A DNA stretch of 64,000 nucleotides, from contig CAKOOO010000002.1 in the NCBI GenBank assembly GCA_934098665.1, forward strand, positions 20,374 through 84,373, written 5' to 3'. The first letter of the stretch is position 1. Every line of letters starts with the position of its first letter. The notes below the pieces were generated by a model, which saw only the letters and a program-made list of their open reading frames with translations, did not search any database and was not told the DNA's origin. Positions 6,605 to 54,499 of this stretch are shown one piece after another. Made by a program: the position numbers and the translations under genes. This DNA comes from an uncultured Bacilli bacterium (GTDB taxonomy: Bacteria > Bacillota_I > Bacilli_A > RF39 > UBA660).

Positions 6605-7091
6605 TATCATCTAAAGTATTATTATTTGATACTGAGTTATTTTTATTTGAGGTTGTAACAATAAAACTACATGTATATAGTTTATTTGTAAGTGCTCCAT
6701 CACCAATATCTGTGCAAGTAATATCTTCGATTTTAGCACCTTTTATAGTCCATGTTTTTTTAATTTCACCTTTTACTTTATATTGAAATTTATATACATC
6801 TTTATCATTTTCTTTTACTGTATAATAAGAAATTTCATAAGTATTTTCGCCTGTTAAAGTAAGAGTTTTACCGCTTATATTATAACTAGTTATATTATCA
6901 CAAATTAAATCATCTTCGATAGTAGTAACAATATCAATACGGTTTGCTTGATTAGAATTTGCTATAAAATCATTATTTCTTTCAAAAGTTACACTAGAAA
7001 GTAAGTTATATAAAAACAGTAAAACAACTGATATTAAAGCAACACTTACAATAAGTTCAACCATTGTCATACCTTTATTATTTAGTTTCAT
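6573..7091 (-). CDS. type IV pilin-like pseudopilin (prepilin N-terminal cleavage/methylation motif)
   Basis: MKLNNKG|MTMVELIVSVAL is a class III signal peptide with Glu at +5. The ATG overlaps the upstream stop codon (ATGA), so M4 of the track ORF was chosen as the start. Confidence 0.75.
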   Translation of the reverse strand: MKLNNKGMTMVELIVSVALISVVLLFLYNLLSSVTFERNNDFIANSNQANRIDIVTTIEDDLICDNITSYNISGKTLTLTGENTYEISYYTVKENDKDVYKFQYKVKGEIKKTWTIKGAKIEDITCTDIGDGALTNKLYTCSFIVTTSNKNNSVSNNNTLDDIILTFANKVE

Positions 7092-8873: not shown

Positions 8874-8881
8874 ATCACACC

Positions 8882-8925
8882 TACTATAACAATTATAAAC
8901 TAAAAATAGTCTAATTTCAATAATT
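8882..8925 (-). promoter_or_regulatory. promoter cassette copy a (TTGAAA-17-TATAAT) in front of the pseudopilin operon
   Basis: On the minus strand the -35 TTGAAA lies at 8915-8920 and the -10 TATAAT at 8892-8897, with a 17-nt spacer. The same ~45-nt block recurs at 10597 and 13001. Confidence 0.55.
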
Positions 8926-10583
8926 TAATAAATCATAGGAACTTTACTATTTTCGATGGCTTCCATTTTTTCTTTTTCATATAATAAATCAAGATATACA
9001 CGATAATATTTTTTAAACAAATTTTCTAGATAAGTAGTTATTTCTTTTCCTGATGAAAATATTGAATAATCTATTCCATTAAATGTATAAGATGGATCTA
9101 AAAGAAGTATTTCTTTTTTTATTTTATCTATTTCCTTTAGTAAATTATTTATATATTTAGTATAAATATTTTCTTGAGTTTTATCCATTTGCTCTAAAGT
9201 TTTATTATTTATAGTACTTATCACATCTATTTTTGATACATTACCACTTACTTTTATTAAAATTGGCATTAAATATTTTCTAAAAGTTTTAATAAAACTA
9301 TTTGCATCATTATAATCAAGTGTTTTTTTACCATATAAATAATCAATTACATTTTGCCTTTCACTCATTAAATAAACTATTATTTCTTTTTTAGTATCTT
9401 CATCATTACTATATTTTAAAATGTCAACAAGTTTTTCTAAATCACTAATAATTTCATAATTTGAACTAACCTTTTCACCTCTTAATGTTTTAATCATATT
9501 TTGAATTAAATTCATAATATCATAGTAATTTCCATTTTTTTCATAAATTTGATTTAAACTACTTTTTAAATTTTCTAAACTTATAATTGCATTTGTATAT
9601 AAAGTATTATTTGTATTTAATGAAAGAGTATCATAACTACTAAATAAACCATTATTATACGTGCTAACTATAGCATCAACTTTTTGTTTTACTTCGTTTT
9701 TATTTATTCCTATAAAGTCAATACTTGTTACTTCTTTTGCTAAAGATAATATTTTTTTAGCTTCACTTGTTAATTTATCTGAAAAAAGATTATTATCATT
9801 TACATTAGTATTTTCATAACTTTTTTCTCTAACTACAGTAAACTCTTTTTTAATAGGAAAACTTGGAAACAAACTAGTTATTAATTCATCACTAATTACT
9901 GGACCTTTTAAAGTAAAACTTTTTACATATAAAGTTGAAAGTATTCTTTTGCTATCAAGATATTCCTTTACTGGTTTACAGTTTCTAGCATCATCAAACT
10001 TATATAAATTATGTTTATAGATAAAATCTATTGAACCATATTTATTATAACTTTTTTCATTTTTTTCAAGCTTTGAATATATTAAATTAAAAAATCTATT
10101 TATATCATTAACAAATTTAATTAATTCTTTTTCATTATTATAAGTTAACGTAAAATTAGAGCCCGCAAAAAGGTTCAAACAACGATTATCACCACTTAAA
10201 TAAAGTCTTGAGAAAAGGTCAAAATCACAAGGAATTGTAATATTATTTATTGGTCTTAAACTTCTAAAAGCATATTCATAAACCTTATTTGTTTTATTAT
10301 GAACAGTTAAACTATTAATTTTAACATCATAAAAACAAAATCCATAACTATCTATTTCTAAATTAGTGCCATCTAAATCAATATCTAAATTCATATCCCC
10401 TGTAACACGTTTATCTAATATTATTTCCCCACATGCATAACTGCATACTCTTCTATATCCACTATGAAGAGTAATTTTATAATTCTCATTTTTAAGTAGT
10501 CTTTGCAAGCTATAAGGCACCCTAAAAGATTTAACATCACCATAGTCATTTACAATTTCTAAATTAATAATATTTTCTTCCAT
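8925..10583 (-). CDS. hypothetical cytoplasmic protein, paralog of 10648-12987
   Basis: 552 aa with no signal peptide. The C-terminal ~450 aa are colinear with the neighbouring gene (for example ...ILLLDPSYTFNGIDYS.FSSGKEI..YLENL.KKYYRVYLDLLYEKEKME). Confidence 0.7.
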   Translation of the reverse strand: MEENIINLEIVNDYGDVKSFRVPYSLQRLLKNENYKITLHSGYRRVCSYACGEIILDKRVTGDMNLDIDLDGTNLEIDSYGFCFYDVKINSLTVHNKTNKVYEYAFRSLRPINNITIPCDFDLFSRLYLSGDNRCLNLFAGSNFTLTYNNEKELIKFVNDINRFFNLIYSKLEKNEKSYNKYGSIDFIYKHNLYKFDDARNCKPVKEYLDSKRILSTLYVKSFTLKGPVISDELITSLFPSFPIKKEFTVVREKSYENTNVNDNNLFSDKLTSEAKKILSLAKEVTSIDFIGINKNEVKQKVDAIVSTYNNGLFSSYDTLSLNTNNTLYTNAIISLENLKSSLNQIYEKNGNYYDIMNLIQNMIKTLRGEKVSSNYEIISDLEKLVDILKYSNDEDTKKEIIVYLMSERQNVIDYLYGKKTLDYNDANSFIKTFRKYLMPILIKVSGNVSKIDVISTINNKTLEQMDKTQENIYTKYINNLLKEIDKIKKEILLLDPSYTFNGIDYSIFSSGKEITTYLENLFKKYYRVYLDLLYEKEKMEAIENSKVPMIY

Positions 10584-10596
10584 ATCTAATACCCTT

Positions 10597-10641
10597 TACT
10601 ATAAATAATTATAAACTAAAAATAGTCTAATTTCAATAATT
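10597..10641 (-). promoter_or_regulatory. promoter cassette copy b
   Basis: -35 at 10631-10636 and -10 at 10608-10613 on the minus strand. The 5' UTR down to the ATG matches copy c. Confidence 0.55.
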
Positions 10642-10647
10642 AGGCTA

Positions 10648-12987
10648 TCATTTAATCAAAGGTACTTTACTATTTTCAAGAGTTTCCATTTTTTCTTTTT
10701 CATATAATAAATCAAGATATACACGATAATATTTTTTATATAAATTTTCTAAATAATCTATTATTTCTTTTCCTGATGAAAATAATGAATAATCTATTCC
10801 ATTAAATGTATAAGATGGATCTAAAAGAAGTATTTCTTTTTTTATTTTATCTATTTCACTTAATAACATTTTAATATAACTATTTGTATTTTCTTTTGTT
10901 TTATTATTCATTTCATTTAAGGCATAATTTTTTATATTATCAAGTACATCTATTTTTGATACATTACCACTTACTTTTGTAAGAATAGGAACTAAATAAA
11001 TCCTAAACTTTCTTATAAAACTATTTATATCATTATAATCTATTTCTTTTTTACCACATAAATAATCTATTATATTTTGTTTTTCACTTTCTAAATAAGA
11101 AATAATTTCATTTTTTGTTGTATCATCTTTACTATATTTTAAAATATTTGCTAAAGTATCTAAATCTTTTAAAATTTCATAGTTGGGTTTTACTTCTTCG
11201 CCATTTAGTTTTTTAATCATATTTTCAATTAAATCTAATATATCATAGTAACCAATTTTTTCTTCAAAATTATGATATAAAGTATCTTTATAGTTTTCTA
11301 ATTTTAAAATAGTATTTGTATAAAGCATATTATTTGAGCTTAATGATAAACCTTCACTCACTTTTAAATTACTATTATACTCTAATATAATCTCATTTAC
11401 ATCTTGTTTAACTTGGTTTTTATCAATACCAATATATTCAATGCTCATTATCTCTCTTACTAAATCAAGTATATGCTGTGCCTCTTTTGTAAGTGTTTGA
11501 TTATCACTAATATTTTCTTTCTTTTCAGTTTTATTTATAAAATTAAATTTAACCCAATTATGCTTTTCAAAAAATGATAAAGCTTTTTTTGTATTTATTT
11601 TAGGACCCTCAAAAGTAATATGTGTTGCCCCAATTTTATTAAATAAACTATCATAATTAGCACCATATGATAAGAAATCACAATATGAAAATTTATATAG
11701 TTCATGTTTATAAATAAAATCGATTTTATTATTTGAATATTTGTAATTAATGGCGTTTTTATAATAATTATCTGAAATTTTTGTAAATAAATCTGTAATT
11801 CTTTGTACGTCTTTCAAAAAAGATATAAGTTCTTTTTCACTTGTATAACTAATAGTTAAATATGCTCTACGAAATAAATTACTAGCCGTTTTATTCCCAC
11901 TTAAATAAAGACTTGTAAATAACTTAAAATCACATGGCATTTTAATACTATAAGCACCCCTATATGAATATTTATCTTTTTTACAAAAAACATTATCCTC
12001 TAAAGAAATGGTTTTGGCATTAATATTTATACTTTCAAATATAACATCCATATCTGAAGAAGAAAAATCAAAAGCATGTGATGAAATAAATACATCATCA
12101 CCCTCTATATTAATATTTACCGTAGCTTTTTCTTTAAAAGAATTTTTAAATAACTCTGAAGATGCATTACTAGAAATTACTTTAGCATTTGAAATATTTA
12201 TATCATATTCTTTTTCATCAAGTGAATATAGCTTTCCGTTACTATCCATTACAATTTCACCTTCATAAGGAAGATAAAAACTATTTATTTCATCATATAA
12301 AGTTTCATTGCAAATTTCAATCTTACCAAATATACTATTAATTTTATCATCTAAAATTTCGTTTAGAAAATATTGATTTAAAAAATTATAGCCTTCATAT
12401 TCAAAATCACTAGCTAAAGTATCTGTATAAAAACCTGCAATAATATCTTTACATATTAAAATATTTTTTTCACTATCTTTTTTCCATATAAGTGGTTTTA
12501 CTTTTACAAAAACCTTTACATCATCGCCATTATTTCTCATCCAAAAATAAGCATATTTTTCCCCATTATAAGTAAAAGTTGGAGCTCTTTTCACTTCATC
12601 ATTTACAGGTATGTGATACTCAAAATCCCAACATTTCGAAGCATCTTTTAGTTTGCTAATAAGATGCTTATCATAAATAATTTTGCTCGGATAAAACCCA
12701 AGAGGATATTCATCATTATCTAAATATTTTATAGAGTTTTCTTTTAAAAAAGATTCAATAAAGCCAGTTGTTCTAATAACAGGTCTTATTCCATAATATT
12801 TTTCATCTTTGCCCTTTTCATAAGAAGTTTTTTCTTTTTTACTTACTAAATTTTCACTTATAAAAAAAGTATTATTTTCGCCATAAATATATTTCGTTAA
12901 ATCATTTTGAGTAGCACCATCTTTAAAAGGCTCATCACTAGTTAAAAATGTTACATAAACTCTTTTTTTAATTGCAAAATCATCCAT
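10648..12987 (-). CDS. hypothetical cytoplasmic protein, longer paralog with an extra N-terminal domain
   Basis: 779 aa. The N-terminal ~230 aa contain YYGIRPVIRT and KPLIWKKD, reminiscent of the GVRPVISL module of the surface family. The rest parallels 8925-10583. Confidence 0.7.
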   Translation of the reverse strand: MDDFAIKKRVYVTFLTSDEPFKDGATQNDLTKYIYGENNTFFISENLVSKKEKTSYEKGKDEKYYGIRPVIRTTGFIESFLKENSIKYLDNDEYPLGFYPSKIIYDKHLISKLKDASKCWDFEYHIPVNDEVKRAPTFTYNGEKYAYFWMRNNGDDVKVFVKVKPLIWKKDSEKNILICKDIIAGFYTDTLASDFEYEGYNFLNQYFLNEILDDKINSIFGKIEICNETLYDEINSFYLPYEGEIVMDSNGKLYSLDEKEYDINISNAKVISSNASSELFKNSFKEKATVNINIEGDDVFISSHAFDFSSSDMDVIFESININAKTISLEDNVFCKKDKYSYRGAYSIKMPCDFKLFTSLYLSGNKTASNLFRRAYLTISYTSEKELISFLKDVQRITDLFTKISDNYYKNAINYKYSNNKIDFIYKHELYKFSYCDFLSYGANYDSLFNKIGATHITFEGPKINTKKALSFFEKHNWVKFNFINKTEKKENISDNQTLTKEAQHILDLVREIMSIEYIGIDKNQVKQDVNEIILEYNSNLKVSEGLSLSSNNMLYTNTILKLENYKDTLYHNFEEKIGYYDILDLIENMIKKLNGEEVKPNYEILKDLDTLANILKYSKDDTTKNEIISYLESEKQNIIDYLCGKKEIDYNDINSFIRKFRIYLVPILTKVSGNVSKIDVLDNIKNYALNEMNNKTKENTNSYIKMLLSEIDKIKKEILLLDPSYTFNGIDYSLFSSGKEIIDYLENLYKKYYRVYLDLLYEKEKMETLENSKVPLIK

Positions 12988-13000
12988 ATCTAATACCCTT

Positions 13001-13044
13001 TACTATAACAATTATAATCTAAAAATAGTCTAATTTCAATAATT
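13001..13044 (-). promoter_or_regulatory. promoter cassette copy c
   Basis: -35 at 13034-13039 and -10 at 13011-13016 on the minus strand, with a 17-nt spacer. Confidence 0.55.
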
Positions 13045-13222
13045 AGGCTATTAATAGCAAAATAAAATTTTGTGTATATAATAAAGTATGAATGATTTTT
13101 TTAAACAAATATTAATAATACTTTCTTTTTTAATTATACTTATAATTTTGTTATATCAAATAGCACTTTTTATTATATTTCCATTTAAAAATAACTTATT
13201 TATATTAAAATTAATAATTGCT

Positions 13223-14119
13223 TTAATTTTCATCTTCATTATTTTCATAATATGGTTTAATTAATTTTTCTGTTTTATATAAATAAGTAATCATATTGTG
13301 CATGTTTACAGTTTTATTAATTTCTCCTTCAGTGGGAATAACTTTCAAAGGAAGACTTATCATAATAAAAAGTAATTTTTTTTCTTCCTCAAGAAGTGGA
13401 AAACACTCTAGATATTCTTTTAAAAATGCAGAAAAATCATAATTTAGATATTCATTATGATATAAATTAATTATATCAAATATTGGACTATCTATTTTAT
13501 AATTATCCCAACTTATTAAATATTTTCCATCTTTATTTTCTATAAAATGATCCATTTTTATATTATTATGAACTACCGCTACTCTAGCAGTATCTTTATC
13601 CTTAATAATTTCATAAAAACTATCAAGCTCATCTTTGCAAAATTTTAAACTAGAATCAATTTTATAATAATTACGGCAAAACAAATAATCACTAGGGCTT
13701 TGATATTCTATAGAAATTGCCTTTAGAAATATACTTTGAAAATATGAACTTAAATATTTAATATTATTATCTATTTGTTCATATATTTCTTTATAATTAT
13801 CTTTACTTACATTTTTAAAATAAACAGTTTTATTATGAAGTGATGCTATAGTATCCGCTAAATCAATAAGTTTTTGTTCATCAAATATTTTTTCATCTTC
13901 AACATATTCAAATAAATTTTCTTTATCACGAAAGTTTTTTATAAGTGAAGGAAAATTATTAAAACCTCTATTATTTAAATAATTAAATAACGTATAAAGC
14001 TCTTTATTTTCTTTTTTTAATACATAATTTCCTGATGTTGATGAAATTATTGTAGAATTACCCATTTTAGTTATTTTATATGGTTTATACTCACTTATTA
14101 CACGGTTTAAATTATTCAT
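13223..14119 (-). CDS. ysxE: CotS/YsxE-like spore coat kinase-fold protein
   Basis: 298 aa immediately downstream of a SpoVID-like gene (Bacillus spoVID-ysxE synteny). HNNIKMDHF and SWDNYKIDSPIFD resemble the phosphotransferase catalytic loop and DxD motif. Confidence 0.6.
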   Translation of the reverse strand: MNNLNRVISEYKPYKITKMGNSTIISSTSGNYVLKKENKELYTLFNYLNNRGFNNFPSLIKNFRDKENLFEYVEDEKIFDEQKLIDLADTIASLHNKTVYFKNVSKDNYKEIYEQIDNNIKYLSSYFQSIFLKAISIEYQSPSDYLFCRNYYKIDSSLKFCKDELDSFYEIIKDKDTARVAVVHNNIKMDHFIENKDGKYLISWDNYKIDSPIFDIINLYHNEYLNYDFSAFLKEYLECFPLLEEEKKLLFIMISLPLKVIPTEGEINKTVNMHNMITYLYKTEKLIKPYYENNEDEN

Positions 14120-20301: not shown

Positions 20302-20329
20302 AAAAAAATGATGAAATATTTCATCATTT
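20302..20329 (-). terminator. rho-independent terminator of surface protein gene A
   Basis: Perfect palindrome aaatgatgaaa-ta-tttcatcattt followed by a U-run on the minus strand. Confidence 0.65.
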
Positions 20330-22739
20330 ATTCTACCACAAAAGGATTAGTATATGAGCCATCACCTGAAGATATTGTGGTGCCAGGTTTTAAAGATATC
20401 GATGGTCGCACACCCCGCACGTTGACCACGAGGTTGTTGTTCCACCCACCGGAGTCCACCGCCCCGACGGCGGCGTAGCCGTTACCGTTGAGGAAGCTGT
20501 TGGGAGAACCTAACAAAACATATTGTCCACTGTTAAAGTAATGACTACTTCCATAACCAGCTAAACTTAATTCTGGTACTGTTAATAATCCTATTGGATA
20601 TTTTAACCTTGCTTTTGCATTATTTACACTAAATCTATCTGTTTCATTTGCACATAATAAACTTTTATTACTTGTACTATTATTTTTAAAATATAAAACT
20701 TGACTACTTGTACTTCCGTTTGGATTCCAACCAGTTGAAGATAAATTAGTTATGGTTCTATCATTACAGAATACTGTATCTTCTAGTTTATTTGTATAAC
20801 TTGTCATATTGTTTTTATACCAATTATCTATATATGCTTTTATTGTACTATCATCAGTATTTACATCATCTGCATATAACATTTCATTTAAAGCGTCTTC
20901 TACTGATTTTCCTCCAGTTAAGGTTATGTAATATGAAGCACCATTACTAATATAATATACATAATAAATTGATGTACAACTATTACCATTTGTTAAGCAT
21001 GTATAATGATGGGTATTTACATTACTACTATTAGCAATAAATGTATCTGAATTTATTGTTACTGTATCGCTTAATGTATATGTCCCATTTGTATATGTAA
21101 ATGATGAGCCAAATACATAATCTTGATTTGCTAATGTTGTTCCATCTGTTACTCCTCCAGATAGCGAGTAATAATATATTATTGTTCCACTATTTGAAAC
21201 TATATAATAGGGATTAGAACAAGATGTTGATGTGCTATTACATGTATATCTTCCAGATAATGTACTTGATGAAGACACTGTTATATTACTAGGGTTTACT
21301 AAATTGTAAGTACCATTATCATATGTTACACCAGTGCCAATTACTTTTGTACCAACTAAATTTACACGATTAATTATTTTCTTAGATGAATATGCATATA
21401 CTTTATTTTCATTATACATATATCCTACATATGCTGGTGAATTATATTTACTATTAAATGCACTTGTTCCTATTATTGTATCTGTTCCTGTATTATTACA
21501 TGATTTTATTACATCTCCTACTGCTTTGCCAATACTAAATACTACATTATCATTATTTTTTGATACACTACTATCTTTAGAATATTTTACGGTAATAACA
21601 TCTGAAGTTGTAAGACCTTTAAGAGCAATTGTTCCTGAATCTGTAAACTTACCAAGTGATGTGGTACCATTTATAAATTCAGCTTTATCACAGCATGTTT
21701 CTGATGATACAGAGTAATTTAAATAATAATCTCCAGCTTCTTTTACACTAAATGTTATTGTTCCCGTTTTACCATGGTCATGATTTGTACTTGTCCATGT
21801 TTTAATTGTTTCATCAAATGTATATGGATATGTAGCATCATTTGTTACATTTATATATTCATCTTGATTAATAGGTTCTGTATTGACTATATCTTTTACA
21901 GCACCATTATAAACAATTTTTACTCCACCTGTATCTGTGGTTCTTACTATTTTCCAGCATTTATCTGCAAATAGTACATTATTATTTTCTACATTGCCAG
22001 TATAGTAATATACTTTATTTGCATATTTTGTTGTATCTTCATAATCACTTCCATTATATAGTTTTACATACTCATCACCATTTAAATATTTTCTTGCAAT
22101 TATAGAGTATAAATTCTTTGCATATTCCTTAAAATCACAATCTATATTTTCTACTTTAATATTACCACCAAAGGTTTTACCTATTATAGAGTTATCTTGA
22201 GCTATATTTAGATTATAGTATCTTAAATTAAAGTTCCATGTTTCACTTATACTTGTTTGTGATGTTGTTGTTTCTATTGAACCAGAATAAATTTTTATTT
22301 TACTGCTTCCTGCTAAAGAAACATCGTTAAAACTATTACCTTGATTAGAGATTCCTCTTACAGCATATTCTTTTAAAGTGCTTTGTGATGGTGTATAAGA
22401 AGTGCTTGGAACGTATACTATATCATAAGAACAATATACTGGGGCATCACCTTTTGCATCAAGTGTTAAAGTTAAATTTGAATTACTTTCTACATATGAA
22501 GTATAATCATTTGACGCACTCCCCACATCTAAATCACTTTCATTTATTGCTAATGCTACATTTTGATTTCCACTTGTATTAAATGTATAAAACTTTGTAT
22601 CTATCCTTGAGGTTGCATTATTATTTGTATTTATTTTCATGCTACCAAAAAATGCATAAGATGCACTTACTAATATAATAAGAGCTATTACTGATGCTAT
22701 TATAGTTAATATTTTCTTCTTATTATCACTTTTTTCCAT
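20328..22739 (-). CDS. large surface protein A of the lectin-like paralog family (carries GC-rich variable island)
   Basis: N-terminal signal-anchor KKKILTIIASVIALIILVSASYAFFG. Family motifs CWKIVRTTDTGGVKIVYNG, PAYVGYMYNE, IDNWY, FCNDR, YPIGLLTVPE and GVRPSISLKPG...GDGSYTNPFVVE. Start set at the ATG at 22739, after GAAAGG. Confidence 0.8.
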   Translation of the reverse strand: MEKSDNKKKILTIIASVIALIILVSASYAFFGSMKINTNNNATSRIDTKFYTFNTSGNQNVALAINESDLDVGSASNDYTSYVESNSNLTLTLDAKGDAPVYCSYDIVYVPSTSYTPSQSTLKEYAVRGISNQGNSFNDVSLAGSSKIKIYSGSIETTTSQTSISETWNFNLRYYNLNIAQDNSIIGKTFGGNIKVENIDCDFKEYAKNLYSIIARKYLNGDEYVKLYNGSDYEDTTKYANKVYYYTGNVENNNVLFADKCWKIVRTTDTGGVKIVYNGAVKDIVNTEPINQDEYINVTNDATYPYTFDETIKTWTSTNHDHGKTGTITFSVKEAGDYYLNYSVSSETCCDKAEFINGTTSLGKFTDSGTIALKGLTTSDVITVKYSKDSSVSKNNDNVVFSIGKAVGDVIKSCNNTGTDTIIGTSAFNSKYNSPAYVGYMYNENKVYAYSSKKIINRVNLVGTKVIGTGVTYDNGTYNLVNPSNITVSSSSTLSGRYTCNSTSTSCSNPYYIVSNSGTIIYYYSLSGGVTDGTTLANQDYVFGSSFTYTNGTYTLSDTVTINSDTFIANSSNVNTHHYTCLTNGNSCTSIYYVYYISNGASYYITLTGGKSVEDALNEMLYADDVNTDDSTIKAYIDNWYKNNMTSYTNKLEDTVFCNDRTITNLSSTGWNPNGSTSSQVLYFKNNSTSNKSLLCANETDRFSVNNAKARLKYPIGLLTVPELSLAGYGSSHYFNSGQYVLLGSPNSFLNGNGYAAVGAVDSGGWNNNLVVNVRGVRPSISLKPGTTISSGDGSYTNPFVVE
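20404..20510 (-). other. candidate DGR variable region (VR-A)
   Basis: 107 nt at about 65% G+C (hand count) inside a ~25% G+C gene. It encodes GSP-NSFLNGNGYAAVGAVDSGGWNNNLVVNVRG-VRP. Confidence 0.5.
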
Positions 22740-27695: not shown

Positions 27696-29486
27696 TTAGC
27701 TCTCTACTACATATGGATTATTATAAGTTCCATCACCGGAAAGTTTAACATCTTTTGAAAGTGAAATAACTGGTCTAACACCTAATATCATACTATCCTC
27801 GTTATTTACCGTTTTTTCATAAAAGGAAAAACTTAAGCCAAAAACCATAGCGGCTCCTTCATCGTTAGCAACATCTGGTGATCCAATTAAAATGCCATCT
27901 GTATCTTCAACTGTATAATAAAATAAATAAAATGCTCGATTTTCTTTTCCAGATCCAGATACTGCACCAGCCATTGCTACTTCGTCTGCGGTTATTAAGC
28001 CTACTGGATAAGTTAATGCACCATTTCCACTACTTGAACCTACTGTAAATTTATCACTTGCATTAGGACATGTTAGAACTGGCTTTTTATTTGCGACTAG
28101 TCTTCCATATGCTCCATAATAAATAAACTCATTATTTGATGTAAATGGGTTTATCTCACCATAATCACCATTTTCACTTCGTGAAGCACTTCTATCATAG
28201 CAAAATGGACTATCAGCTATTAATTTTGACGTGCTCTCATCAGTATAAAGCGAAGTTGTTGTATACCAATTATCAATATAAGTTTTTATTGCACTATCAT
28301 TTGTAAGACCATGTTGCTTACCTATTTCATATTTATATCCTACATATTCTGGTTTGTATACATTAGTGTTAAAATCACTTTTTCCAATATATATATTATC
28401 ATTTAGCATTACTACCTTTTGATCTTCGGTTGGAGCTGTTGTACCAGAATAAATCATTCGTACACTGCCATCACCATTTATTCTTATTATTCGCCAGTAT
28501 ATATCGTCACCTATATTCCACAAATATGAACAGTTATAGTTATAGGAACTAGAAGAATTACATTCTTCTAGAGAAGTATATTTTTTATATGATGAAGAAC
28601 TGGCTGAATAATATCCACGTACTGGACCATTAGATGAATATTTTCCAAACTTTATCCAGTTATTATCTACCGCACCTCTAAAATAGTAAGATGTTCCTTG
28701 GTCGTCTTTAGCTGCATACATGCCATCATTTGTTGTTGCCACTGCTGTAAAATCAGGACTTTCTTTTGTTTCAATTGCATTAGCACCACCATTTTTTGCA
28801 AGTATAATATCTTTGGCTTTTGGCACTTCTCCAACATTGCAATTATTATTTTCTACATATATTTTACCTGTAAATGATTTATTACCTAGTTGTGCTTGGT
28901 CTACATTCAAATTATAATATCTACCTGTTATATTTATATTTTGCACTACACTTGTACCTTCACTTGTTATTGTAGCATTTTTTACAAGGGTTTTCTTTGC
29001 TCCAACAGTTGTTGTCTTCGGTGTCCAAGTGCTATCATAAGCAAAATTTGTTTCACTTGCAAAGCTATTTGTTCCACTTGGACTAGAAACCTCTAAAGTA
29101 ATTTCTTTAGTTGCTCCATTTGTTACTGCAACAGTGCTTCCATATATTTCACTAGAAAGATCATATTCATACACTACATCATATGTACATGTTGTTATTA
29201 CATCTGGTACTCCAGTAAGATTTACTGTAAGTGTAGCGGTATTTTCGGCAGCTAGTCCAGTATTACCCTTAAACATTCCACTTGTAGGTACTATTACATT
29301 TAAATTTGCACTTGTTGCTATAAATGAAGTATCTCCTATTGTACTTGCATGAATATTTACTGCTACCTTATTTTCAAGATTTACTGTAAACATACCAAAA
29401 TATGCAAACGATGCACTAATTAAAAGCACTAAAAGAAACATTCCAGATATTATCCAACCTATATTTACTTTCTTTTTATTTTTCAT
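27696..29486 (-). CDS. surface protein D of the lectin-like paralog family
   Basis: N-terminal anchor GWIISGMFLLVLLISASFAYFG. YWRIIRINGDGSVRMIYSG, PEYVGYKYE, IDNWY, FCYDR, YPVGLITADE and GVRPVISLS...GDGTYNNPYVVE. Confidence 0.8.
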   Translation of the reverse strand: MKNKKKVNIGWIISGMFLLVLLISASFAYFGMFTVNLENKVAVNIHASTIGDTSFIATSANLNVIVPTSGMFKGNTGLAAENTATLTVNLTGVPDVITTCTYDVVYEYDLSSEIYGSTVAVTNGATKEITLEVSSPSGTNSFASETNFAYDSTWTPKTTTVGAKKTLVKNATITSEGTSVVQNINITGRYYNLNVDQAQLGNKSFTGKIYVENNNCNVGEVPKAKDIILAKNGGANAIETKESPDFTAVATTNDGMYAAKDDQGTSYYFRGAVDNNWIKFGKYSSNGPVRGYYSASSSSYKKYTSLEECNSSSSYNYNCSYLWNIGDDIYWRIIRINGDGSVRMIYSGTTAPTEDQKVVMLNDNIYIGKSDFNTNVYKPEYVGYKYEIGKQHGLTNDSAIKTYIDNWYTTTSLYTDESTSKLIADSPFCYDRSASRSENGDYGEINPFTSNNEFIYYGAYGRLVANKKPVLTCPNASDKFTVGSSSGNGALTYPVGLITADEVAMAGAVSGSGKENRAFYLFYYTVEDTDGILIGSPDVANDEGAAMVFGLSFSFYEKTVNNEDSMILGVRPVISLSKDVKLSGDGTYNNPYVVES

Positions 29487-33912: not shown

Positions 33913-34005
33913 ATGAAAAAAAAGACAAGAAAAAAAGTAGCATGGATACTTATAGTACTTATGCTTTTATCAGTAGTTGCAAGTATCATAGCATACTTTC
34001 TATAA
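33913..34005 (+). CDS. candidate 30-aa membrane peptide (MKKKTRKKVAWILIVLMLLSVVASIIAYFL)
   Basis: AAAAGGAAG RBS. TTGAAA-17-TGgTAAATT promoter at 33859-33887. Confidence 0.3.
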   Translation: MKKKTRKKVAWILIVLMLLSVVASIIAYFL

Positions 34006-34743
34006 TAAGTTTAATAAATTTAAGAACTTATCTTGAAAAAGAAAAACAATAAATAATGAAGAAACCAAAAATGGGCCAAAAGCAACTTCATTATTTTTTT
34101 GTAGTTTTAAGGAAGCTACACTATATGGAAGTGCTAAAAAAGAAGCAAGAACAAGTGATATTAATGAAAGTTTAAAATTAAGTGCATAACCAATAACAAA
34201 AGAAAGTTTTATATCTCCCCCACCAAGGCTCTCTTTTTTAAAGGCAAAATCTCCGATTATTTTAATTAAATACATTATTAAAAATAATGCTACTCCACTT
34301 ACTAAACTAATAAGTGCTTCTTTGTAACCAAAATAAATAAATTTTAAGATAAAAAGTAATACACTACTTATTATAAGGGGGCTATCTAAAATAATATAGT
34401 AATAAAAATCAGTAATAAATATTAGTATCATAAGACTTGCTAAAACTAAAAGTGCATAATGCATGTAACCAGTAAAAAAATGGTAGCAAAGTGCAAATAA
34501 AATGCCTGTACTAATTTCTATAATTATATTAACCATACTAATTTTCTTATGACAATATCTACATTTACCCTTTAAAAAAATGTATGAAAAAATAGGTATT
34601 AAATCATACCATGCTAAAATATGATTACATTTATCACATTTACTACGAGAAAAAAAGGCATCTTCACCTTTAGGAAGTCTTTTACCTATAACAAGGTAAA
34701 AAGATCCTAAAACTGTGCCTATTATAAACATAATTACTTCCAT
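34000..34743 (-). CDS. prepilin peptidase (A24 family, PilD/ComC-like)
   Basis: Cys-rich CDKCNH...CRYCHKKIS, a GGGDIKL active-site region, and a polytopic membrane topology. Confidence 0.85.
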   Translation of the reverse strand: MEVIMFIIGTVLGSFYLVIGKRLPKGEDAFFSRSKCDKCNHILAWYDLIPIFSYIFLKGKCRYCHKKISMVNIIIEISTGILFALCYHFFTGYMHYALLVLASLMILIFITDFYYYIILDSPLIISSVLLFILKFIYFGYKEALISLVSGVALFLIMYLIKIIGDFAFKKESLGGGDIKLSFVIGYALNFKLSLISLVLASFLALPYSVASLKLQKNNEVAFGPFLVSSLFIVFLFQDKFLNLLNLL

Positions 34744-42585: not shown

Positions 42586-42612
42586 AAAAAAAATGATAGA
42601 TTACCTATCATT
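42586..42612 (-). terminator. rho-independent terminator of surface protein gene C
   Basis: aaugauag-guaau-cuaucauu hairpin plus a U-run on the minus strand. Confidence 0.6.
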
Positions 42613-44731
42613 AATTAATAATATATGGTTTAGTATACGAGCCATCTCCTGAAAACACTATAGTTTCAGGTTTTAGTGATATGACAGGTTTTACACCAAT
42701 AGATGCCATTGCTGTTCCTCGTGATACAGTATCGTATAACGTTGATTGCATTAAGATTCTTTGATATAATACTGGTGATTGTAGCCATATACCATATCCT
42801 GTATATAAATAATGTTTTTTTGCTTCCACATCTTTAGTTGCCAAATGTGCTTCTGGTGCAGAAAGAAGTCCAACTGGATATGTTAAAGCCCCATTACCAT
42901 TACTAATGTTAACTGTAAATCTATCATTTATATTTTCACAAAAAAGACTATAAGTAACATCGTTATTTTTAAATTTAAATGAATCACCTGTTGTTTGTTT
43001 ACTTAATGACCAACTACCAAGATCAGTATTGCTTCTATCATTACAATATATTGTATCTTCTAATTTATCTGTATAGTTTATCATATTATTTTCATACCAT
43101 GCATCTACTACTTTTTTTATTGCACTGTCCTTTTTATTAACATCATCCGCATATAACATTTCATTTATTGCATTATCTATTGACTTACCATTAGAAATTT
43201 TTATTGCAGAAATATCACTAGTGCCCTTATAATTGATATAATATATAGAACTACAAGTGTTTGATGAATTATAACAAGTAAAATGATAATCATCAATATT
43301 ACTATAATTTGAACGCCAAGTTTTTGCATTAACAGTGATAGTATCCGTTAAAACATATTTACCATTTGTATAAGTAAAAGATTTACCAAAAACATAATCA
43401 ATATCATAATAAGATCCATTTGTTATACCGTCTTTCAAAGTAAAATAATTAAATTGCCTACCGCTTGTTGAAAAAATATATCTTACTTTTTTACAAGAAG
43501 TTGAGGAACCATCACTACAAATATATTTTCCAACAAATGTACTTAAATCACTACTTGTTGTAATATTTACAGAAGTTGGATTTACAAGACTATATAATCC
43601 ATTACTATATGATACTGAGGTTCCAAACATAGTAACATTGCTTGATGTCATATAGTTCATAATTTCATAGTAGTTATCTTCATATGCAATATTATACATA
43701 TACCCAGCATATGCTAAAGAGTTTTGTTCTTCATTATAAGGAGAAAAAGCAATTTGAGCATCATAATATGTATTATTACAAGATTTATATTTATTAATAG
43801 TTTTTCCAAAACTAAATATAACATTATTTCTTGTTCCTGAAGTATAACTTTGATTTCGAGTAAATACTACTTTAATTGTATTTGAGGTAGATAAATTATC
43901 TAAAATAATTTGTCCAGAAATATTACCAACATAGCTACCAAGTAATTCACTATCTTTATAAATATTTATATTCATATCATTTATATTTGCATAAGTTGAA
44001 ACGTCATAATTTAATGCGAAGTCACCATTTTCTGGAACATTAAATGATATTGCTGAACTATTTGTTCCTGTATTTGTACTTGTCCATGTTTTATTTGTTT
44101 CATCAAAAGTATATGGGTATTGTGAATTATTTATTAAATTTTTGTATTGCGATAGTTCAAATAAATTTAAATCGGCAACATTTTTTTGGCTACCATTATA
44201 AATCATTTTAACTCCACCAGTACCTGTAGTTCTTACAATTTTCCAACAATACCCACCAAAAAGAACATTATTATTTTCTACAGCTCCATTAAAGTAATAT
44301 ATATTATTTGCATAATTTGTTGTATCCCCATAATCTGCACCATTATAAATTTTTACAAAATTATCATTGTCTTGATATCTTTTTGCTATTGTATCATATA
44401 GTTTGGCACTATAATCAAAGTATAAATAGCATTTATCACTTCCTATAAAACTAAAACCCACTACCCCGTTTACATTATCATAACTAATTACTTCACCATT
44501 ATTTTCACAATGTGTTTTTTCTTTATTTAATGTATAATTTCCTTTGGGTATATCTTTTGAACTTGATTTTGTATAATCAGTTGCACCATCTTCTTTTATC
44601 ATTATAGATAATTTTTCTTCTTTAATTGGGTTATTTTTACTTAAACTATTTTGCTTAAATTTATAGGTTAAAATTAAACTTAAAATCCCTACTCCCAAAA
44701 ATACGAACAACACTATTTTTTTCTTTTTCAT
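42611..44731 (-). CDS. surface protein C of the lectin-like paralog family
   Basis: MKKKKIVLFVFLGVGILSLILTYKFKQNS anchor, nearly identical to gene B. CWKIVRTTGTGGVKMIYNG, LAYAGYMYN, VDAWY, YCNDR, YPVGLLSAPE and GVKPVISLKP...GDGSYTKPYIIN. ATG at 44731 preferred over the track GTG. Confidence 0.8.
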   Translation of the reverse strand: MKKKKIVLFVFLGVGILSLILTYKFKQNSLSKNNPIKEEKLSIMIKEDGATDYTKSSSKDIPKGNYTLNKEKTHCENNGEVISYDNVNGVVGFSFIGSDKCYLYFDYSAKLYDTIAKRYQDNDNFVKIYNGADYGDTTNYANNIYYFNGAVENNNVLFGGYCWKIVRTTGTGGVKMIYNGSQKNVADLNLFELSQYKNLINNSQYPYTFDETNKTWTSTNTGTNSSAISFNVPENGDFALNYDVSTYANINDMNINIYKDSELLGSYVGNISGQIILDNLSTSNTIKVVFTRNQSYTSGTRNNVIFSFGKTINKYKSCNNTYYDAQIAFSPYNEEQNSLAYAGYMYNIAYEDNYYEIMNYMTSSNVTMFGTSVSYSNGLYSLVNPTSVNITTSSDLSTFVGKYICSDGSSTSCKKVRYIFSTSGRQFNYFTLKDGITNGSYYDIDYVFGKSFTYTNGKYVLTDTITVNAKTWRSNYSNIDDYHFTCYNSSNTCSSIYYINYKGTSDISAIKISNGKSIDNAINEMLYADDVNKKDSAIKKVVDAWYENNMINYTDKLEDTIYCNDRSNTDLGSWSLSKQTTGDSFKFKNNDVTYSLFCENINDRFTVNISNGNGALTYPVGLLSAPEAHLATKDVEAKKHYLYTGYGIWLQSPVLYQRILMQSTLYDTVSRGTAMASIGVKPVISLKPETIVFSGDGSYTKPYIIN

Positions 44732-44778
44732 ATACTCCACTTTTTCTCCGTAAATACGGCATATAATTTTCTTATATT

Positions 44779-44901
44779 AGGTAGATTTAAGAAAATTCTA
44801 CCTTGTATTTACGTACCTTACTATTAAATAATACACTATTTTTTATAATTTTTAAAGTCTAAATAACGATTTTACGCATATCTATTTTCTTAAATGTATC
44901 T
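44779..44901. promoter_or_regulatory. invertible-switch copy 1 upstream of gene C, promoter-like segment facing the gene
   Basis: IRL is aggtagatttaagaaaatt (44779-44797). IRR at 44883-44901 matches its complement at 16 of 19 positions. The 85-bp interior is the reverse complement of the interior at 52554-52638. Confidence 0.6.
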
Positions 44902-44968
44902 ACTTTAGGAAAATACGAACAAGGTAATTACTGAGTTTTTTTGATATTAACTTATTTTTTTGTTTTTC

Positions 44969-50360: not shown

Positions 50361-52487
50361 TTATTCTATTACAAAAGGATTAGTATATGTGCCATCACCT
50401 GAGGATATTTCTGTCCCTTGTTTAAGTGATATTGAAGGTCGCACGCCACTCGCGCTGGCCACGAAGTTGTAGTGCAACCCACTGTAGTGCACCACCCGGA
50501 CGCCTACGTGGTTGCCGTCAAAGTTGTGGGGAGAACCAAGCCAAACTTCTTGTCCACTATAAAAGTAATGACTACTTCCACTTCCATAACCAGACAATCT
50601 TAATTCTGGTGCTGTTAATAATCCTATAGGATATTTTAATTTTGCTTTTGCATTATTTACACTAAATCTATCTGTTTCATTTGCACATACTAAACTCTTA
50701 TTACTTGTACTATAATTTTTAAATTCTAATGGTGTTGTACTTCCGCCGTCTGGGTTCCAACCTTCTAAACTTGATATACTTCTATCATTACAAAATATTG
50801 TATCTTCTAGTTTATCATCATATTTATCTTTTATATTTTCTTCATACCAACTATCTATATATGCTTTTATAGTACTATCTTTTTTATTTACATCATCTGC
50901 ATATAACATCTCATTTAATGCATCACTTACTGACTTTCCCCCCGTTAAGGTTATGTAATATGGAGTACCATTATAAATATAATAAACGTAATAAATTGAT
51001 GTACAGCTATTACCATTTGTTAAACATGTATAATGGTGGGTATTTACTTTACTACTATTATTAATAAATGTATCGGAATTTATTGTTACTGTATCAGTTA
51101 ATGTATATGTTCCATTATATGTAAAGGATTTGCCAAATACATAATCTTGATTTGCTAGTGTTGTTACATCTGTTGTTCCTCCAGAAAGTGAGTAATAATA
51201 TATTGTTGTTCCACTATATCCCGCTATATACCATAAACTATAACATGTTCCTGTTGTATTTGAACTATTACATGTATATTTACCTACTAAAGTACTAATA
51301 TTAGAACTTGACACAGTTATTGTTGCTGCATTAGTAAGTGTATATTTATTACTTGCATAGGTTGCTCCATCTCCATATGCTTTTTGTCCACTAAAATATG
51401 TATTATTAATTATTGTCTTAGATGAAGATGGATATACTTTGCTTTCATTATACATATATCCTACATATGCTGGTGAGTTAGAATAATTATTAAATGTACT
51501 TGTTCCTATTTGTGAATTCTGTCCTGTATTATTACATGTTTTTATTATACTATTTGCTTTTCCGAAACTAAATATTACATTATTTCTGTTTCCATCTAAA
51601 GGCGGCATTTGTCTAGTATAAACTAATTTTACTACATTTGATGTAGCAAGGTCTTTAAAAACAATTTGTCCAGTTGCTACTCCAGTATATTTTCCTTGAC
51701 TTACATCATCTTTAAATATTTCTACATTTATATAATCAATATAGTCATCCATTGATAAATCATAATTTATTACATAATCTCCGCTTGTTGGTGCCGTAAA
51801 TGATATTGTTGAACTATTTGCTCCTGTATTTGTACTTGTCCATGTTTTATTTGTTTCATCATATGTATAGGGATATGATATATCATTAGTTAAGTTTGTA
51901 TATTCTGACTGATTTAATAAAGTGTAGTCATCTATAGTTGGTCTTCCACTATATACTATCTTAACTCCACCTGTATCTGTAGTTCTTACTATCTTCCAGC
52001 ATTTATCAGCAAATAAAACATTGTTATTTTCTACAGCTCCGTTAAAGTAATATATATTGTTTTCATATGACGTTGTATCTCCATAATCTGCTCCATTATA
52101 TAGTTTTACAAATACATCATCTCTATTATATCTATTTTCAATTATATTGTATAAAGGTGGTACTATTTCATCAAAATATAAGAAACATTTATCTGTACCT
52201 ATAAAAGCAAAAGACACAGTACCTGTAGCATTATCATAACCTTCTATTTTACCATTATTTTTGCAATAACTTTTTTCTGTGTTCAATGTATAATCACCTT
52301 TAGGAATATCCTTTGAGCTTGATTTTGTATATTCTGTAGCACCAGATTCTTTTATCATTATAGATAATTTTTCTTCTTTAACAATTTTATTTTTACTTAA
52401 ACTATTTTGCTTAAATTTATAGGTTAAAATTAAACTTAAAACACCTACAAATAAAAATACGAACAACACTATTTTTTTCTTCTTCAT
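50361..52487 (-). CDS. surface protein B of the lectin-like paralog family (mosaic, carries GC-rich variable island)
   Basis: The N-terminal ~130 aa are nearly identical to gene C. The C-terminal ~250 aa are nearly identical to gene A, apart from the GC-rich island. Confidence 0.85.
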   Translation of the reverse strand: MKKKKIVLFVFLFVGVLSLILTYKFKQNSLSKNKIVKEEKLSIMIKESGATEYTKSSSKDIPKGDYTLNTEKSYCKNNGKIEGYDNATGTVSFAFIGTDKCFLYFDEIVPPLYNIIENRYNRDDVFVKLYNGADYGDTTSYENNIYYFNGAVENNNVLFADKCWKIVRTTDTGGVKIVYSGRPTIDDYTLLNQSEYTNLTNDISYPYTYDETNKTWTSTNTGANSSTISFTAPTSGDYVINYDLSMDDYIDYINVEIFKDDVSQGKYTGVATGQIVFKDLATSNVVKLVYTRQMPPLDGNRNNVIFSFGKANSIIKTCNNTGQNSQIGTSTFNNYSNSPAYVGYMYNESKVYPSSSKTIINNTYFSGQKAYGDGATYASNKYTLTNAATITVSSSNISTLVGKYTCNSSNTTGTCYSLWYIAGYSGTTIYYYSLSGGTTDVTTLANQDYVFGKSFTYNGTYTLTDTVTINSDTFINNSSKVNTHHYTCLTNGNSCTSIYYVYYIYNGTPYYITLTGGKSVSDALNEMLYADDVNKKDSTIKAYIDSWYEENIKDKYDDKLEDTIFCNDRSISSLEGWNPDGGSTTPLEFKNYSTSNKSLVCANETDRFSVNNAKAKLKYPIGLLTAPELRLSGYGSGSSHYFYSGQEVWLGSPHNFDGNHVGVRVVHYSGLHYNFVASASGVRPSISLKQGTEISSGDGTYTNPFVIE
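50437..50537 (-). other. candidate DGR variable region (VR-B)
   Basis: 101 nt at about 62% G+C (hand count). It encodes GSP-HNFDGNHVGVRVVHYSGLHYNFVASASG-VRP, at the same position as VR-A. Confidence 0.5.
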
Positions 52488-52534
52488 ACACTCCTCTTTT
52501 TCCGCATAAGTACGCCATCGAGTTTTCTTATATT

Positions 52535-52657
52535 AGGTAGATTTAAGAAAATTACATAGCGTAATTTCGTTATTTAGACTTTAAAAATATAAAAAAGTAA
52601 TGTATAATTTAATAGTAAGGTACGTAAATACGAAGTAGAATTTTCTTAAATCTACCT
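52535..52657. promoter_or_regulatory. invertible-switch copy 2 upstream of gene B, promoter-like segment facing away from the gene
   Basis: Perfect 19-bp inverted repeats: aggtagatttaagaaaatt (52535-52553) and aattttcttaaatctacct (52639-52657). The interior has TTTAAA-17-TATAAT on the plus strand (52580-52608). Confidence 0.65.
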
Positions 52658-52727
52658 ACTTTAGGAAAATACGAACAAGGTAATTACTTGGTTTATTTGA
52701 TATTAACCTATTTTTTTAAATTTACAT

Positions 52728-52754
52728 AAAAAAATATTATCCTTTTTGGGATAA
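52728..52754 (-). terminator. rho-independent terminator of cotJC
   Basis: uuaucc-caaaaa-ggauaa hairpin plus a U-run on the minus strand. Confidence 0.55.
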
Positions 52755-52768
52755 CATTTATTTTTTTA

Positions 52769-53326
52769 TTAATAGCCTTTAGATTTATAATAATCGTATA
52801 ACTGTTTAAATCTATTAAAGTGAACTACCTCTCTTTGTCTTAAAAAAAGTAGTGGTCCAATTATATCTTCATCTGTAGTTTGATTTATTAAGCCTTCATA
52901 AGTTGCTCTTGCTTTTTCTTCAGCGGCCATATCTTCAGAAAGGTTTGCAAGAACATCACCAGTTACTGCAAAATAAGCACAAGTAAATGGATTTCCAGTG
53001 GCATCAACTGGGAAAATGCCTACTCCATGTTCTGTATAATAACTTCCAAGGCCAGCTTTTTCAAGTTCATCAATTGTCGCATTTTTAGTAAGTTCATGCA
53101 CCATAGCACAAATCATTTCAACATGTCCAAGTTCTTCGGTTGCTATATCATTTAAAAGCGCTCTACCTTTATCATCTGGCATTGTAAATTTTTGTGAAAA
53201 ATATCTCATTGCTGCCCCAAGTTCACCATTAGGTCCTCCAAATTGAGTTATTAAATATTTTGCCATTTTTAAATCTTTTTTTGTAATATTTATTGGATAA
53301 GCAAGTTTTTTATCATATTTAAACAT
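52769..53326 (-). CDS. cotJC: manganese catalase-family spore coat protein CotJC
   Basis: MFKYDKKLAYPI..., ITQFGGPNGELGAAMRY and EELGHVEM motifs. Start at M13 of the track ORF, 8 nt after GAGGA. Confidence 0.85.
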   Translation of the reverse strand: MFKYDKKLAYPINITKKDLKMAKYLITQFGGPNGELGAAMRYFSQKFTMPDDKGRALLNDIATEELGHVEMICAMVHELTKNATIDELEKAGLGSYYTEHGVGIFPVDATGNPFTCAYFAVTGDVLANLSEDMAAEEKARATYEGLINQTTDEDIIGPLLFLRQREVVHFNRFKQLYDYYKSKGY

Positions 53327-53765
53327 ATTTTCCATCCTCACTTTCCCATGGCCATGGACCATTTACCCATTTAAATGAATTATAATTGTTTCCTTTACTA
53401 TAACAAAGTGGGCCATATTTTTCCTCATATTCTTTAGAGTATTTTTCAAGTTTTTCACACCACATTTTATATTTTGCAAATAAATTTTCATCATTTGGAT
53501 TTAAATCTAGTGCAAGTACATAATCATTTACCGCAAAAGATGATTCCATAACTTTAAATAAATCTTTATCTTTTTCTGTTTTAAGTTTTGGCATTAAATA
53601 AGTATAATTTTTATAAGGTTTATATTCATTTGGAAACATATTACCTTTTAAAAATCCTTCTTCCGAAGAAAGTTTTTCTTCATATTTTTTACTAAAATCT
53701 AACCCAGGAAAATTATAAAGCATATCACTATAACTATTAAAATAGTTATCATTATCAAATAACAT
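53319..53765 (-). CDS. cotJB: CotJA-CotJB fusion-like spore coat protein
   Basis: The N-terminal part, EEGFLKGNMFPNEYKPY, is CotJA-like. The C-terminal part, FAVNDYVLALDLNPNDENLFAKY, is CotJB-like. It overlaps cotJC. Confidence 0.6.
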   Translation of the reverse strand: MLFDNDNYFNSYSDMLYNFPGLDFSKKYEEKLSSEEGFLKGNMFPNEYKPYKNYTYLMPKLKTEKDKDLFKVMESSFAVNDYVLALDLNPNDENLFAKYKMWCEKLEKYSKEYEEKYGPLCYSKGNNYNSFKWVNGPWPWESEDGKYV

Positions 53766-53860
53766 ATTTTTTCCCCTTTCATAGATAAGTTATGAAAAGA
53801 GGAAAAAATACATTAGTTTTTTTGCCTATAAAAAAGAAAACCTTTAAAAAAGCTTTCTTA

Positions 53861-54340: not shown

Positions 54341-54499
54341 AAACTCCTCACATTTAAAAAGAAAACTTATATTTCAAAGTTTTCGTTTACATTTTCGTTC
54401 GGAATAATTTATATCCCGCACCATCCAAGAGCGGCTAACATTTTCTAAACATTTTCTTAAATGCAATTATATTTTACCATATTGTTTATTGTTTTTCAA
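54341..54499 (-). promoter_or_regulatory. promoter plus ~120-nt leader with an intrinsic terminator (candidate attenuator or riboswitch)
   Basis: On the minus strand, TTGAAA (54494-54499), 17 nt, then TGgTAAAAT (-10 at 54471-54476). The hairpin gaaaacuu-ugaaauau-aaguuuuc plus U5 lies at 54355-54384, directly before the RBS. Confidence 0.35.

Follow-up and report, generated by a model that had tools for sequence, protein, structure and literature searches.

The window (the whole 64-kb stretch of DNA analysed here) has a G+C content of 24.9%, and almost all of its genes lie on the minus strand. They include sporulation genes (CotJB, CotJC, a SirA-like protein and FtsW/SpoVE) as well as LexA, a sortase, RpoD and folate enzymes. 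Contigs near-identical to the window come from human-gut metagenomes, Hadza samples among them. Two minus-strand ORFs, 34000-34743 and 6573-7100, encode a type IV prepilin peptidase (A24) and a protein bearing an N-terminal-methylation motif, and indicate that this Gram-positive-type organism has a type IV pilus or pseudopilus system. Just outside the window start (L054 5455-8119; L055 4173-6999), two adjacent large proteins of 396-464 aa, an unusual size, carry sigma-70 regions 2 and 4.

Two paralogous genes, B and C, encode proteins that are 52% identical, and each is preceded by a short segment bounded by inverted repeats. The features of the two loci and of a further paralog, A, are as follows.

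20328-22737, minus strand: paralog A, ~803 aa from the ATG at 22737
42611-44731, minus strand: gene C, 706 aa, paralog of B
44767-44795, no strand: gene-proximal core site of switch C, arm-spacer-arm pattern
44797-44883, minus strand: interior of switch C, 87 bp, predicted promoter toward gene C (ON orientation)
44885-44913, no strand: gene-distal core site of switch C, arm-spacer-arm pattern
50361-52487, minus strand: gene B, 708 aa, the gene under switch B
52488-52533, minus strand: predicted 5' untranslated region of gene B from the proximal spacer down, with the outer arm and the ribosome-binding site GAGGAG
52523-52551, no strand: gene-proximal core site of switch B, arm-spacer-arm pattern, same architecture in all related copies
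52553-52639, plus strand: interior of switch B, 87 bp between the 12-nt arm cores, predicted promoter inside (OFF orientation)
52641-52669, no strand: gene-distal core site of switch B, arm-spacer-arm pattern
52659-52735, minus strand: conserved distal flank, common to the paralogous loci, including AAAATACGAACAA at 52666-52678

Protein B begins with a membrane anchor or signal helix, and its extracellular part is rich in beta structure. Gene C is followed on the same strand by two unknown ORFs and the sortase gene, and an exact look-up found no record of the 706-aa form of its protein. Protein A is 63% identical to B across B residues 105-708 and has a different N-terminus. Its gene has no switch; the promoter is fixed and has an extended -10 (TGATATAAT, 22773-22765, minus strand), so the family mixes constitutive and switchable members. 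Metagenomes contain >2000 homologs of the family; searches of Pfam, NCBIfam and PDB sequences gave no match. The confident AlphaFold model of a family protein (pLDDT 86.4) places a helix at the N-terminus and beta-rich domains after it, and one of these domains, a beta-sandwich, resembles CBM51, 86, 35 and 29 in Foldseek, with weak matches only (E about 1e-3). The model suggests glycan binding, nothing beyond that, and makes 'surface protein' a reasonable label for B and C.

Scanning genome contigs with protein B returned a single distant locus (L001, 33% identity). Within the window, the minus-strand ORFs at 27696-29486 and 7088-8074 have only a C-terminal domain of ~170 aa in common with B (36% and 29% identity, respectively), namely the conserved module ...W-L-x-S-P...G-V-R-P-x-I-S-L. 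Strain divergence has a hot spot at gene B, as seen when window 50361-53857 is set against L008 and L002. Contig L008 is 97.5% identical to the window across the 10-kb lexA-to-sortase stretch, C included, but only 83% identical across cotJ-B, and the B proteins of syntenic strains share 66-86% identity.

A sequence-only reading of the window had described an invertible segment upstream of B flanked by perfect 19-bp inverted repeats. AGGTAGATTTAAGAAAATT occurs at 52535-52553 and, at locus C, at 44779-44797, and its exact reverse complement lies at 52639-52657; the positions at B therefore stand, while the perfect repeat is in fact 20 bp long (52534-52553 and 52639-52658). It is the sole inverted repeat of at least 17 bp within 300 bp across the whole window, for which first-order Markov simulations give a chance expectation of 0.33 inverted 16-mers. 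The B interior had also been read, correctly, as the reverse complement of the C interior: 78 of 87 positions agree after inversion vs 55 of 87 directly, the global alignment scores are 122 and 14, respectively, and both blocks quoted as identical after inversion were found. The statement that C has the same flanks fails at its gene-distal repeat (44884-44902, ATTTTCTTAAATGTATCTA), which has two mismatches to the reverse complement of the gene-proximal one.

Judged from its surroundings, the reported 19-bp repeat is only part of the putative recombination site. At each switch end, a 7-bp asymmetric spacer separates an outer arm, which is imperfect, from an inner one; the two arms are mutually inverted and 11-14 bp long (consensus ATTTAAGAAAAT). 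In the gene direction, the distal end reads GTATTTTCCTAAAG / TAGGTAG / ATTTAAGAAAATTC and the proximal end (T/G)AATTTTCTTAAAT / CTACCTA / ATATAAGAAAA(C/T)T(C/A). The proximal site of B consists of outer arm TTTTCTTATAT (52523-52533), spacer TAGGTAG (52534-52540) and inner arm ATTTAAGAAAA (52541-52551), and its distal site of inner arm TTTTCTTAAAT (52641-52651), spacer CTACCTA (52652-52658), which is the reverse complement of the proximal spacer, and outer arm CTTTAGGAAAA (52659-52669). The corresponding elements of C are an outer arm at 44767-44777, spacer TAGGTAG at 44778-44784 and an inner arm at 44785-44795 on the proximal side, and an inner arm at 44885-44895, spacer GTATCTA at 44896-44902 and an outer arm at 44903-44913 on the distal side. 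All related copies share this architecture. The pattern TTTTCYTAWAK-N7-MTWTARGAAAA matches the window exactly four times, at the four switch ends, and never in 100 shuffles. A looser full-site pattern, applied to 506 kb of fetched DNA, found switch ends only, plus two low-complexity chance matches. A dyad-symmetric (hix-like) reading centred on the arm was rejected, as it fits one end only of some copies and is not conserved.

The arm-spacer-arm architecture explains the 'third repeat-like copy' at 52520-52533, before the ribosome-binding site, as the proximal outer arm, and part of the 13-nt direct repeat AAAATACGAACAA as the distal outer arm. This direct repeat is present at both loci, as had been noted, with positions one base lower than originally given (52454-52466, 52666-52678, 44698-44710 and 44910-44922). 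It is largely the distal outer arm together with an arm-like stretch in the signal-peptide codons, and not a target-site duplication around the element. The motif TTCGTATTT has five copies in the window, all at the B and C switch loci and all on the gene (minus) strand. They lie in the distal flank, at one interior end (52626-52634) and in codons 8-11 of genes B and C, and those in the signal-peptide codons are conserved at synonymous positions across paralogs. The arm-like stretch there (13 nt conserved among paralogs) was discarded as a third functional site; its would-be spacer and second arm vary between paralogs, and it is absent from L033 and L043. The distal flank is identical at 82/100 positions between B and C, and an extended arm, an accessory site and an insulator for outward OFF-state transcription are candidates for its role. 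Together, the TTCGTATTT copies, the 75-bp distal flank and the leader hairpin described below may represent accessory sites, extended arms or traces of the origin of the cassette. A lone arm core (ATTTTCTTAAAT) lies in intergenic DNA at 54451-54462, upstream of a tRNA-editing-domain gene. Its conservation extends to L002 and L003, but it has neither spacer nor partner arm and is probably a chance occurrence.

The arms are constant across loci and the spacers are not: six variants occur (TAGGTAG, TAGATAC, TAGATAG, TATATAC, GTAATAG and GTATAAG), and within each switch the two ends match at 7/7 spacer positions, with the exception of C in the window (2 mismatches). In the 655-kb contig L043, which encodes a 54%-identical protein, two tandem family genes have a switch each (9620-9968 and 12190-12540) of ~320 bp rather than 87 bp. 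The inverted repeat of these switches is the entire 29-bp arm-spacer-arm unit, and their spacers, GTAATAG and GTATAAG, are matched. Constant arms around a variable, matched and asymmetric spacer of 6-8 bp are a signature that points to the core sites of tyrosine recombinases. We propose, by analogy, that differing spacers should restrict recombination to the two ends of one switch, in the manner of the 'spacer code' that has lately been put forward for C. difficile RecV switches (PMC12282940). Alternatively, homogenisation of the inverted repeats could retain matched spacers with no need for spacer homology in recombination.

Switch C of the window bears on this proposal. Its proximal spacer is TAGGTAG and its distal spacer TAGATAC (GTATCTA reverse-complemented), whereas in L002, L003 and L008 both spacers of the orthologous C switch read TAGGTAG. 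The hybrid pair recurs base for base in the independent assemblies L051 and L052, and C is ON in 3/3. Given the two mismatches, and by analogy with Cre-lox and with repeat variants of C. difficile, slow flipping or locking in the ON state is expected, and the C allele of the window is probably one or the other.

The interior of switch B carries TTTAAA-17-TATAAT on the plus strand at 52580-52608 (-35 TTTAAA at 52580-52585, -10 TATAAT at 52603-52608), directed away from gene B, exactly as the sequence-only reading had it. At C, TTTAAA-17-TATTAT runs from 44856 to 44828 on the minus strand and is directed at gene C. Promoter activity and transcription start are consensus predictions only, and promoter-like hexamers are common at 25% G+C (shuffles give 2.6-3.0 per 400 bp). 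The site in the cassette is the sole sigma-70-like match in each 400-bp region. No intrinsic terminators are predicted in these regions in either orientation. In an alignment of ten related copies, all turned so that the promoter reads forward, neither the hexamers (-35 TTTAAA and -10 TAT(A/T)AT) nor the 17-nt spacing varies, and the distant copy in L033 has TTGAAA-17-TATTAA on the same strand. A sole promoter-like site, conserved in position and spacing across ten copies, supports the earlier suggestion that B is phase-OFF. Thus gene B is predicted to be OFF and gene C ON, and inversion would act on transcription. In the ON-state leader, the two arms pair into a hairpin, which for the C copy has -19.1 kcal/mol and z -3.2. 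Across the two orientations the hairpin energies are -19.1 and -17.1 kcal/mol; the structure derives from the dyad symmetry of the proximal site, forms in either orientation and leaves the ribosome-binding site free. An Rfam search gave no family match for the switch and only three tRNAs across the window.

The original case for site-specific inversion was a comparison of paralogs, and paralogs in opposite orientations might be an old fixed difference. Orthologous loci provide better evidence, and they support the claim. We recovered syntenic contigs (cotJ - B - lexA - tkt - ... - C - sortase) with proteins 66-100% identical to B. Locus B is OFF in the window, L002, L003, L004, L051, L052 and L053, and ON in L008; between the window and L008, the distal flank is identical at 97/100 positions and the interior at 84/87 positions when inverted vs 52/87 directly. 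Locus C is ON in the window, L051 and L052, and OFF in L002, L003 and L008; between the window and L002, the distal flank is identical at 100/100 positions and the interior at 83/87 inverted vs 51/87 directly. Three samples (L005, L006 and L007) have a third locus, situated between topA and a DUF6020 gene, in the ON orientation. Opposite orientations at orthologous loci, in DNA with ~97.5% nucleotide identity over 10 kb, therefore indicate recent flips within one species. Phase variation is defined by heterogeneity within a population. The window's own strain has one orientation per locus, with B OFF in 5/5 assemblies and C ON in 3/3. The contigs come from k-mer assemblers (up to k141, per contig names), and the 20-bp repeat is shorter than the k-mers, so we infer that the orientations must be supported by reads. 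The anatomy, the two orientations at orthologous loci and the conservation of promoter and sites are direct observations; from these, B and C very probably each have a separate copy of an invertible promoter cassette (an 'inverton', or phase-variation switch).

A metagenome scan for two arm cores 75-100 nt apart gave 22 matches, of which only L011, L013 and L019 are homologous, the rest sharing 12-mers by chance. A scan of viral contigs with the full site gave seven matches, in coding or unrelated sequence, and these were set aside. An unrelated element of ~105 bp occurs in three copies (L009 2467-2571; L026 971-1075 and 8921-9025, contig ERZ869921 NODE-24), all in the same orientation, with a 17-bp inverted repeat (ATTTAAGAAAATTAGGG / CCCTAATTTTCTTAAAT) and conserved flanks. 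The three copies have no Rfam match, and the element may be a structured RNA or another repeat family.

The earlier observation that the window encodes no recombinase is borne out: none of the 40 window ORFs scanned against Pfam has a recombinase (integrase or resolvase) domain. Nor did ~6 kb of sequence past the window start, or the surroundings of most family genes in the fetched DNA, yield a recombinase gene. The enzyme is presumably unlinked, as RecV and Mpi are, and the sites suggest that it is most probably a tyrosine recombinase. In L033-L035, a XerD-like gene, scoring just below the XerD equivalog cut-off, directly precedes a switch-bearing family gene. It was rejected as a linked enzyme: orthologous xerD loci in L036-L042 have the same neighbourhood without the family gene, so the adjacency in L033-L035 is a local insertion and coincidental. 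A XerC-like gene 5 kb from family member P0086 (L031, L032) was likewise dismissed, as the P0086 gene has no switch. Membership in the XerC/XerD-dif system is contradicted by the absence of linkage between site and Xer and by a spacer of 7 bp, in place of the dif-like 11-6-11 arrangement; the arms also seem unlike B. subtilis dif. Downstream of xerD, the switch and the family gene in L033, a cluster of Arc-like, Zot-like and Rep_OBD genes (8771-14107) suggests an integrated filamentous-phage-like or plasmid-like element.

Could the enzyme be a serine invertase of the Hin/Gin/Mpi type? There is precedent in Bacteroides Mpi, a serine recombinase that flips many unlinked promoter cassettes of <200 bp. 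Hix-type sites are 26 bp long with a 2-bp crossover, and Hin/Gin systems further have an enhancer and carry the invertase gene within or beside the segment. The sites described here, with an odd 7-bp spacer, arms of 11-14 bp and an overall length of 29-35 bp, are instead like lox, FRT and the lambda core. A spacer that varies freely and yet is matched at both ends is the signature of a homology-dependent overlap of 6-8 bp (cf. PMC12282940). The Pfam scan of window ORFs also gave no resolvase domain, and the 87-bp interior contains no ORF, which, along with the odd spacer, led us to reject membership in the Hin/Gin group. We regard a serine enzyme in general as unlikely. Less likely again is that the orientations are an inversion polymorphism that no longer switches, produced by a few historic flips, by a recombinase since lost or by rare homologous recombination at the 20-bp repeats, with strains now fixed. 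All assemblies of the window's strain are indeed alike, and no recombinase came to light in or near the window. Consensus assemblies, however, give the majority orientation only. Moreover, the arms and matched spacers are conserved at ~8 distinct loci, including relatives with 54% protein identity, which implies continuing selection for a protein-recognised site. Between strains that have the segment in opposite orientations, no more than 0-3% of the flanks and 3-4/87 interior bases differ, so that the inversions must be recent.

A segment that inverts might also act through the leader RNA, by termination, stability or translation (cf. C. difficile cwpV and flgB), under a fixed promoter in the distal flank. 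The conservation of the 75-bp distal flank between paralogs and the stable leader hairpin would fit such control. But the 400-bp regions gave no gene-strand sigma-70-like site except within the cassette, nor an intrinsic terminator whichever way it lies, the hairpin is the dyad of the proximal site, present in both orientations with the ribosome-binding site free, and it is the interior promoter that is conserved; we therefore consider leader-RNA control quite improbable, somewhat more so than a defunct polymorphism. Finally, the sequences are metagenome assemblies, in which an assembler might pick an orientation arbitrarily across inverted repeats. This we can practically discount: the assembly k-mers are longer than the 20-bp repeat, separate assemblies of one strain are identical base for base over 279-293 bp, and differences in orientation accompany strain-specific substitutions in the interior. 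An invertible promoter cassette remains the reading that we favor.

By the tests made here on its sites and neighbourhood, the switch is placed outside the RecV, Hin and Xer-dif systems. Its design is close to that of RecV sites, its logic to that of the mpl family, and the class to which it belongs, gut invertons, is already well known. The RecV switches of C. difficile (Cdi1-Cdi7: cwpV, flgB, cmrRST and others) are unlinked segments of ~150-200 bp served by one unlinked tyrosine recombinase (PMC12282940). A RecV site has two degenerate inverted motifs around a short spacer, which is specific to its switch and the same at the two ends; locked phenotypes result from natural variants of the repeat or the spacer (PMC12282940). 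Both systems are found in Firmicutes, with several short invertible segments whose arm-spacer-arm ends have spacers matched within a switch. They differ in spacer length (7 bp here vs 6), in the size of the cassette (shorter here, ~118 bp) and in the arms, which are unrelated (ATTTAAGAAAAT here vs AWAGTWNCCNTTW for RecV); searching the window for the RecV motif AWAGTWNCCNTTW-N6-WAANGGNWACTWT, at up to 3 mismatches, gave 0 matches. The 64 kb and the short flanks that were covered yielded no RecV homolog. In addition, the predicted promoter lies inside the cassette here, whereas cwpV and flgB act after transcription initiation, and the targets here are paralogs of one protein family.

In the mpl (P35) lipoproteins of Mycoplasma penetrans, most genes are independently ON or OFF via their own small adjacent invertible promoter, and Xer-like tyrosine recombinases are the candidate enzymes (PMC2268961). 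Common to both is a low-G+C bacterium whose surface proteins form a multigene family, each switched paralog having an invertible promoter of its own. Unlike the mpl products, B and C are unrelated, membrane-anchored, beta-rich proteins of ~700 aa without a lipobox, from a spore-forming gut host. Only some family members here have a switch (paralog A has its fixed promoter), and full lox-like sites with locus-specific spacers are documented here. Invertons of the gut are widely catalogued and frequent in Firmicutes from human metagenomes (PMC11602134). The Bacteroides systems (Mpi capsule loci and the surface-protein switches of tyrosine recombinases) resemble the present one in that a gut commensal inverts promoters at variable surface loci with a global recombinase. 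They belong to another phylum, have another repeat consensus and, for Mpi, probably another enzyme class, and single protein genes rather than polysaccharide operons are controlled here. E. coli fimS (FimB/FimE) is likewise an invertible promoter acted on by tyrosine recombinases that turns a surface structure ON or OFF. FimS is 314 bp long, with 9-bp repeats, adjacent recombinase genes and a single locus, none of which applies here.

How, then, might the switch work? Each end of the cassette would be a complete site resembling a lox or att core, two inverted arms of 11-14 bp around the 7-bp asymmetric spacer. The four arms would be bound by a recombinase, in all likelihood of the tyrosine class and with its gene at another place in the genome, and strand exchange across the 7-bp spacers would invert the cassette. 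The flipped DNA, ~118 bp from spacer centre to spacer centre, would carry the sigma-70-type promoter TTTAAA-17-TATAAT with it. In the ON state, as at C, the promoter would read via a leader of ~90 nt into the gene; in the OFF state, as at B, it would read outward, toward the terminator region of the upstream gene. With arms common to all loci and spacers specific to each, recombination would be confined within one switch. More tentatively, and with somewhat less than even confidence, we suggest that ATTTAAGAAAAT with a locus-specific 7-bp spacer defines a lineage-wide regulon in uncultured, low-G+C, spore-forming gut Bacilli, in which one unlinked tyrosine recombinase flips the private promoters of many members of a hypervariable family (>2000 homologs) and natural two-base spacer mutations, like that of C in the window, leave switches heritably locked ON. 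A variant in which there is no dedicated invertase and the housekeeping Xer enzymes flip the switches is less likely.

How gut bacteria escape phages and the immune system of the host is shaped by surface proteins that undergo phase variation. To our knowledge, mechanistic knowledge of them comes nearly all from Bacteroides, enterobacteria, mycoplasmas and C. difficile. The switches described here reveal no new principle and, well supported as they are, will not surprise specialists. They do offer a clean, sequence-readable case in uncultured human-gut Bacilli, with the anatomy defined to the base and a recognition sequence that can be searched for across metagenomes so that ON and OFF states can be counted. 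The natural spacer-mismatch allele at C provides a test of the 'spacer code' outside C. difficile. The family under control is a large one without annotation and a hot spot at which strains diverge, and is therefore a candidate determinant of colonisation or phage susceptibility.
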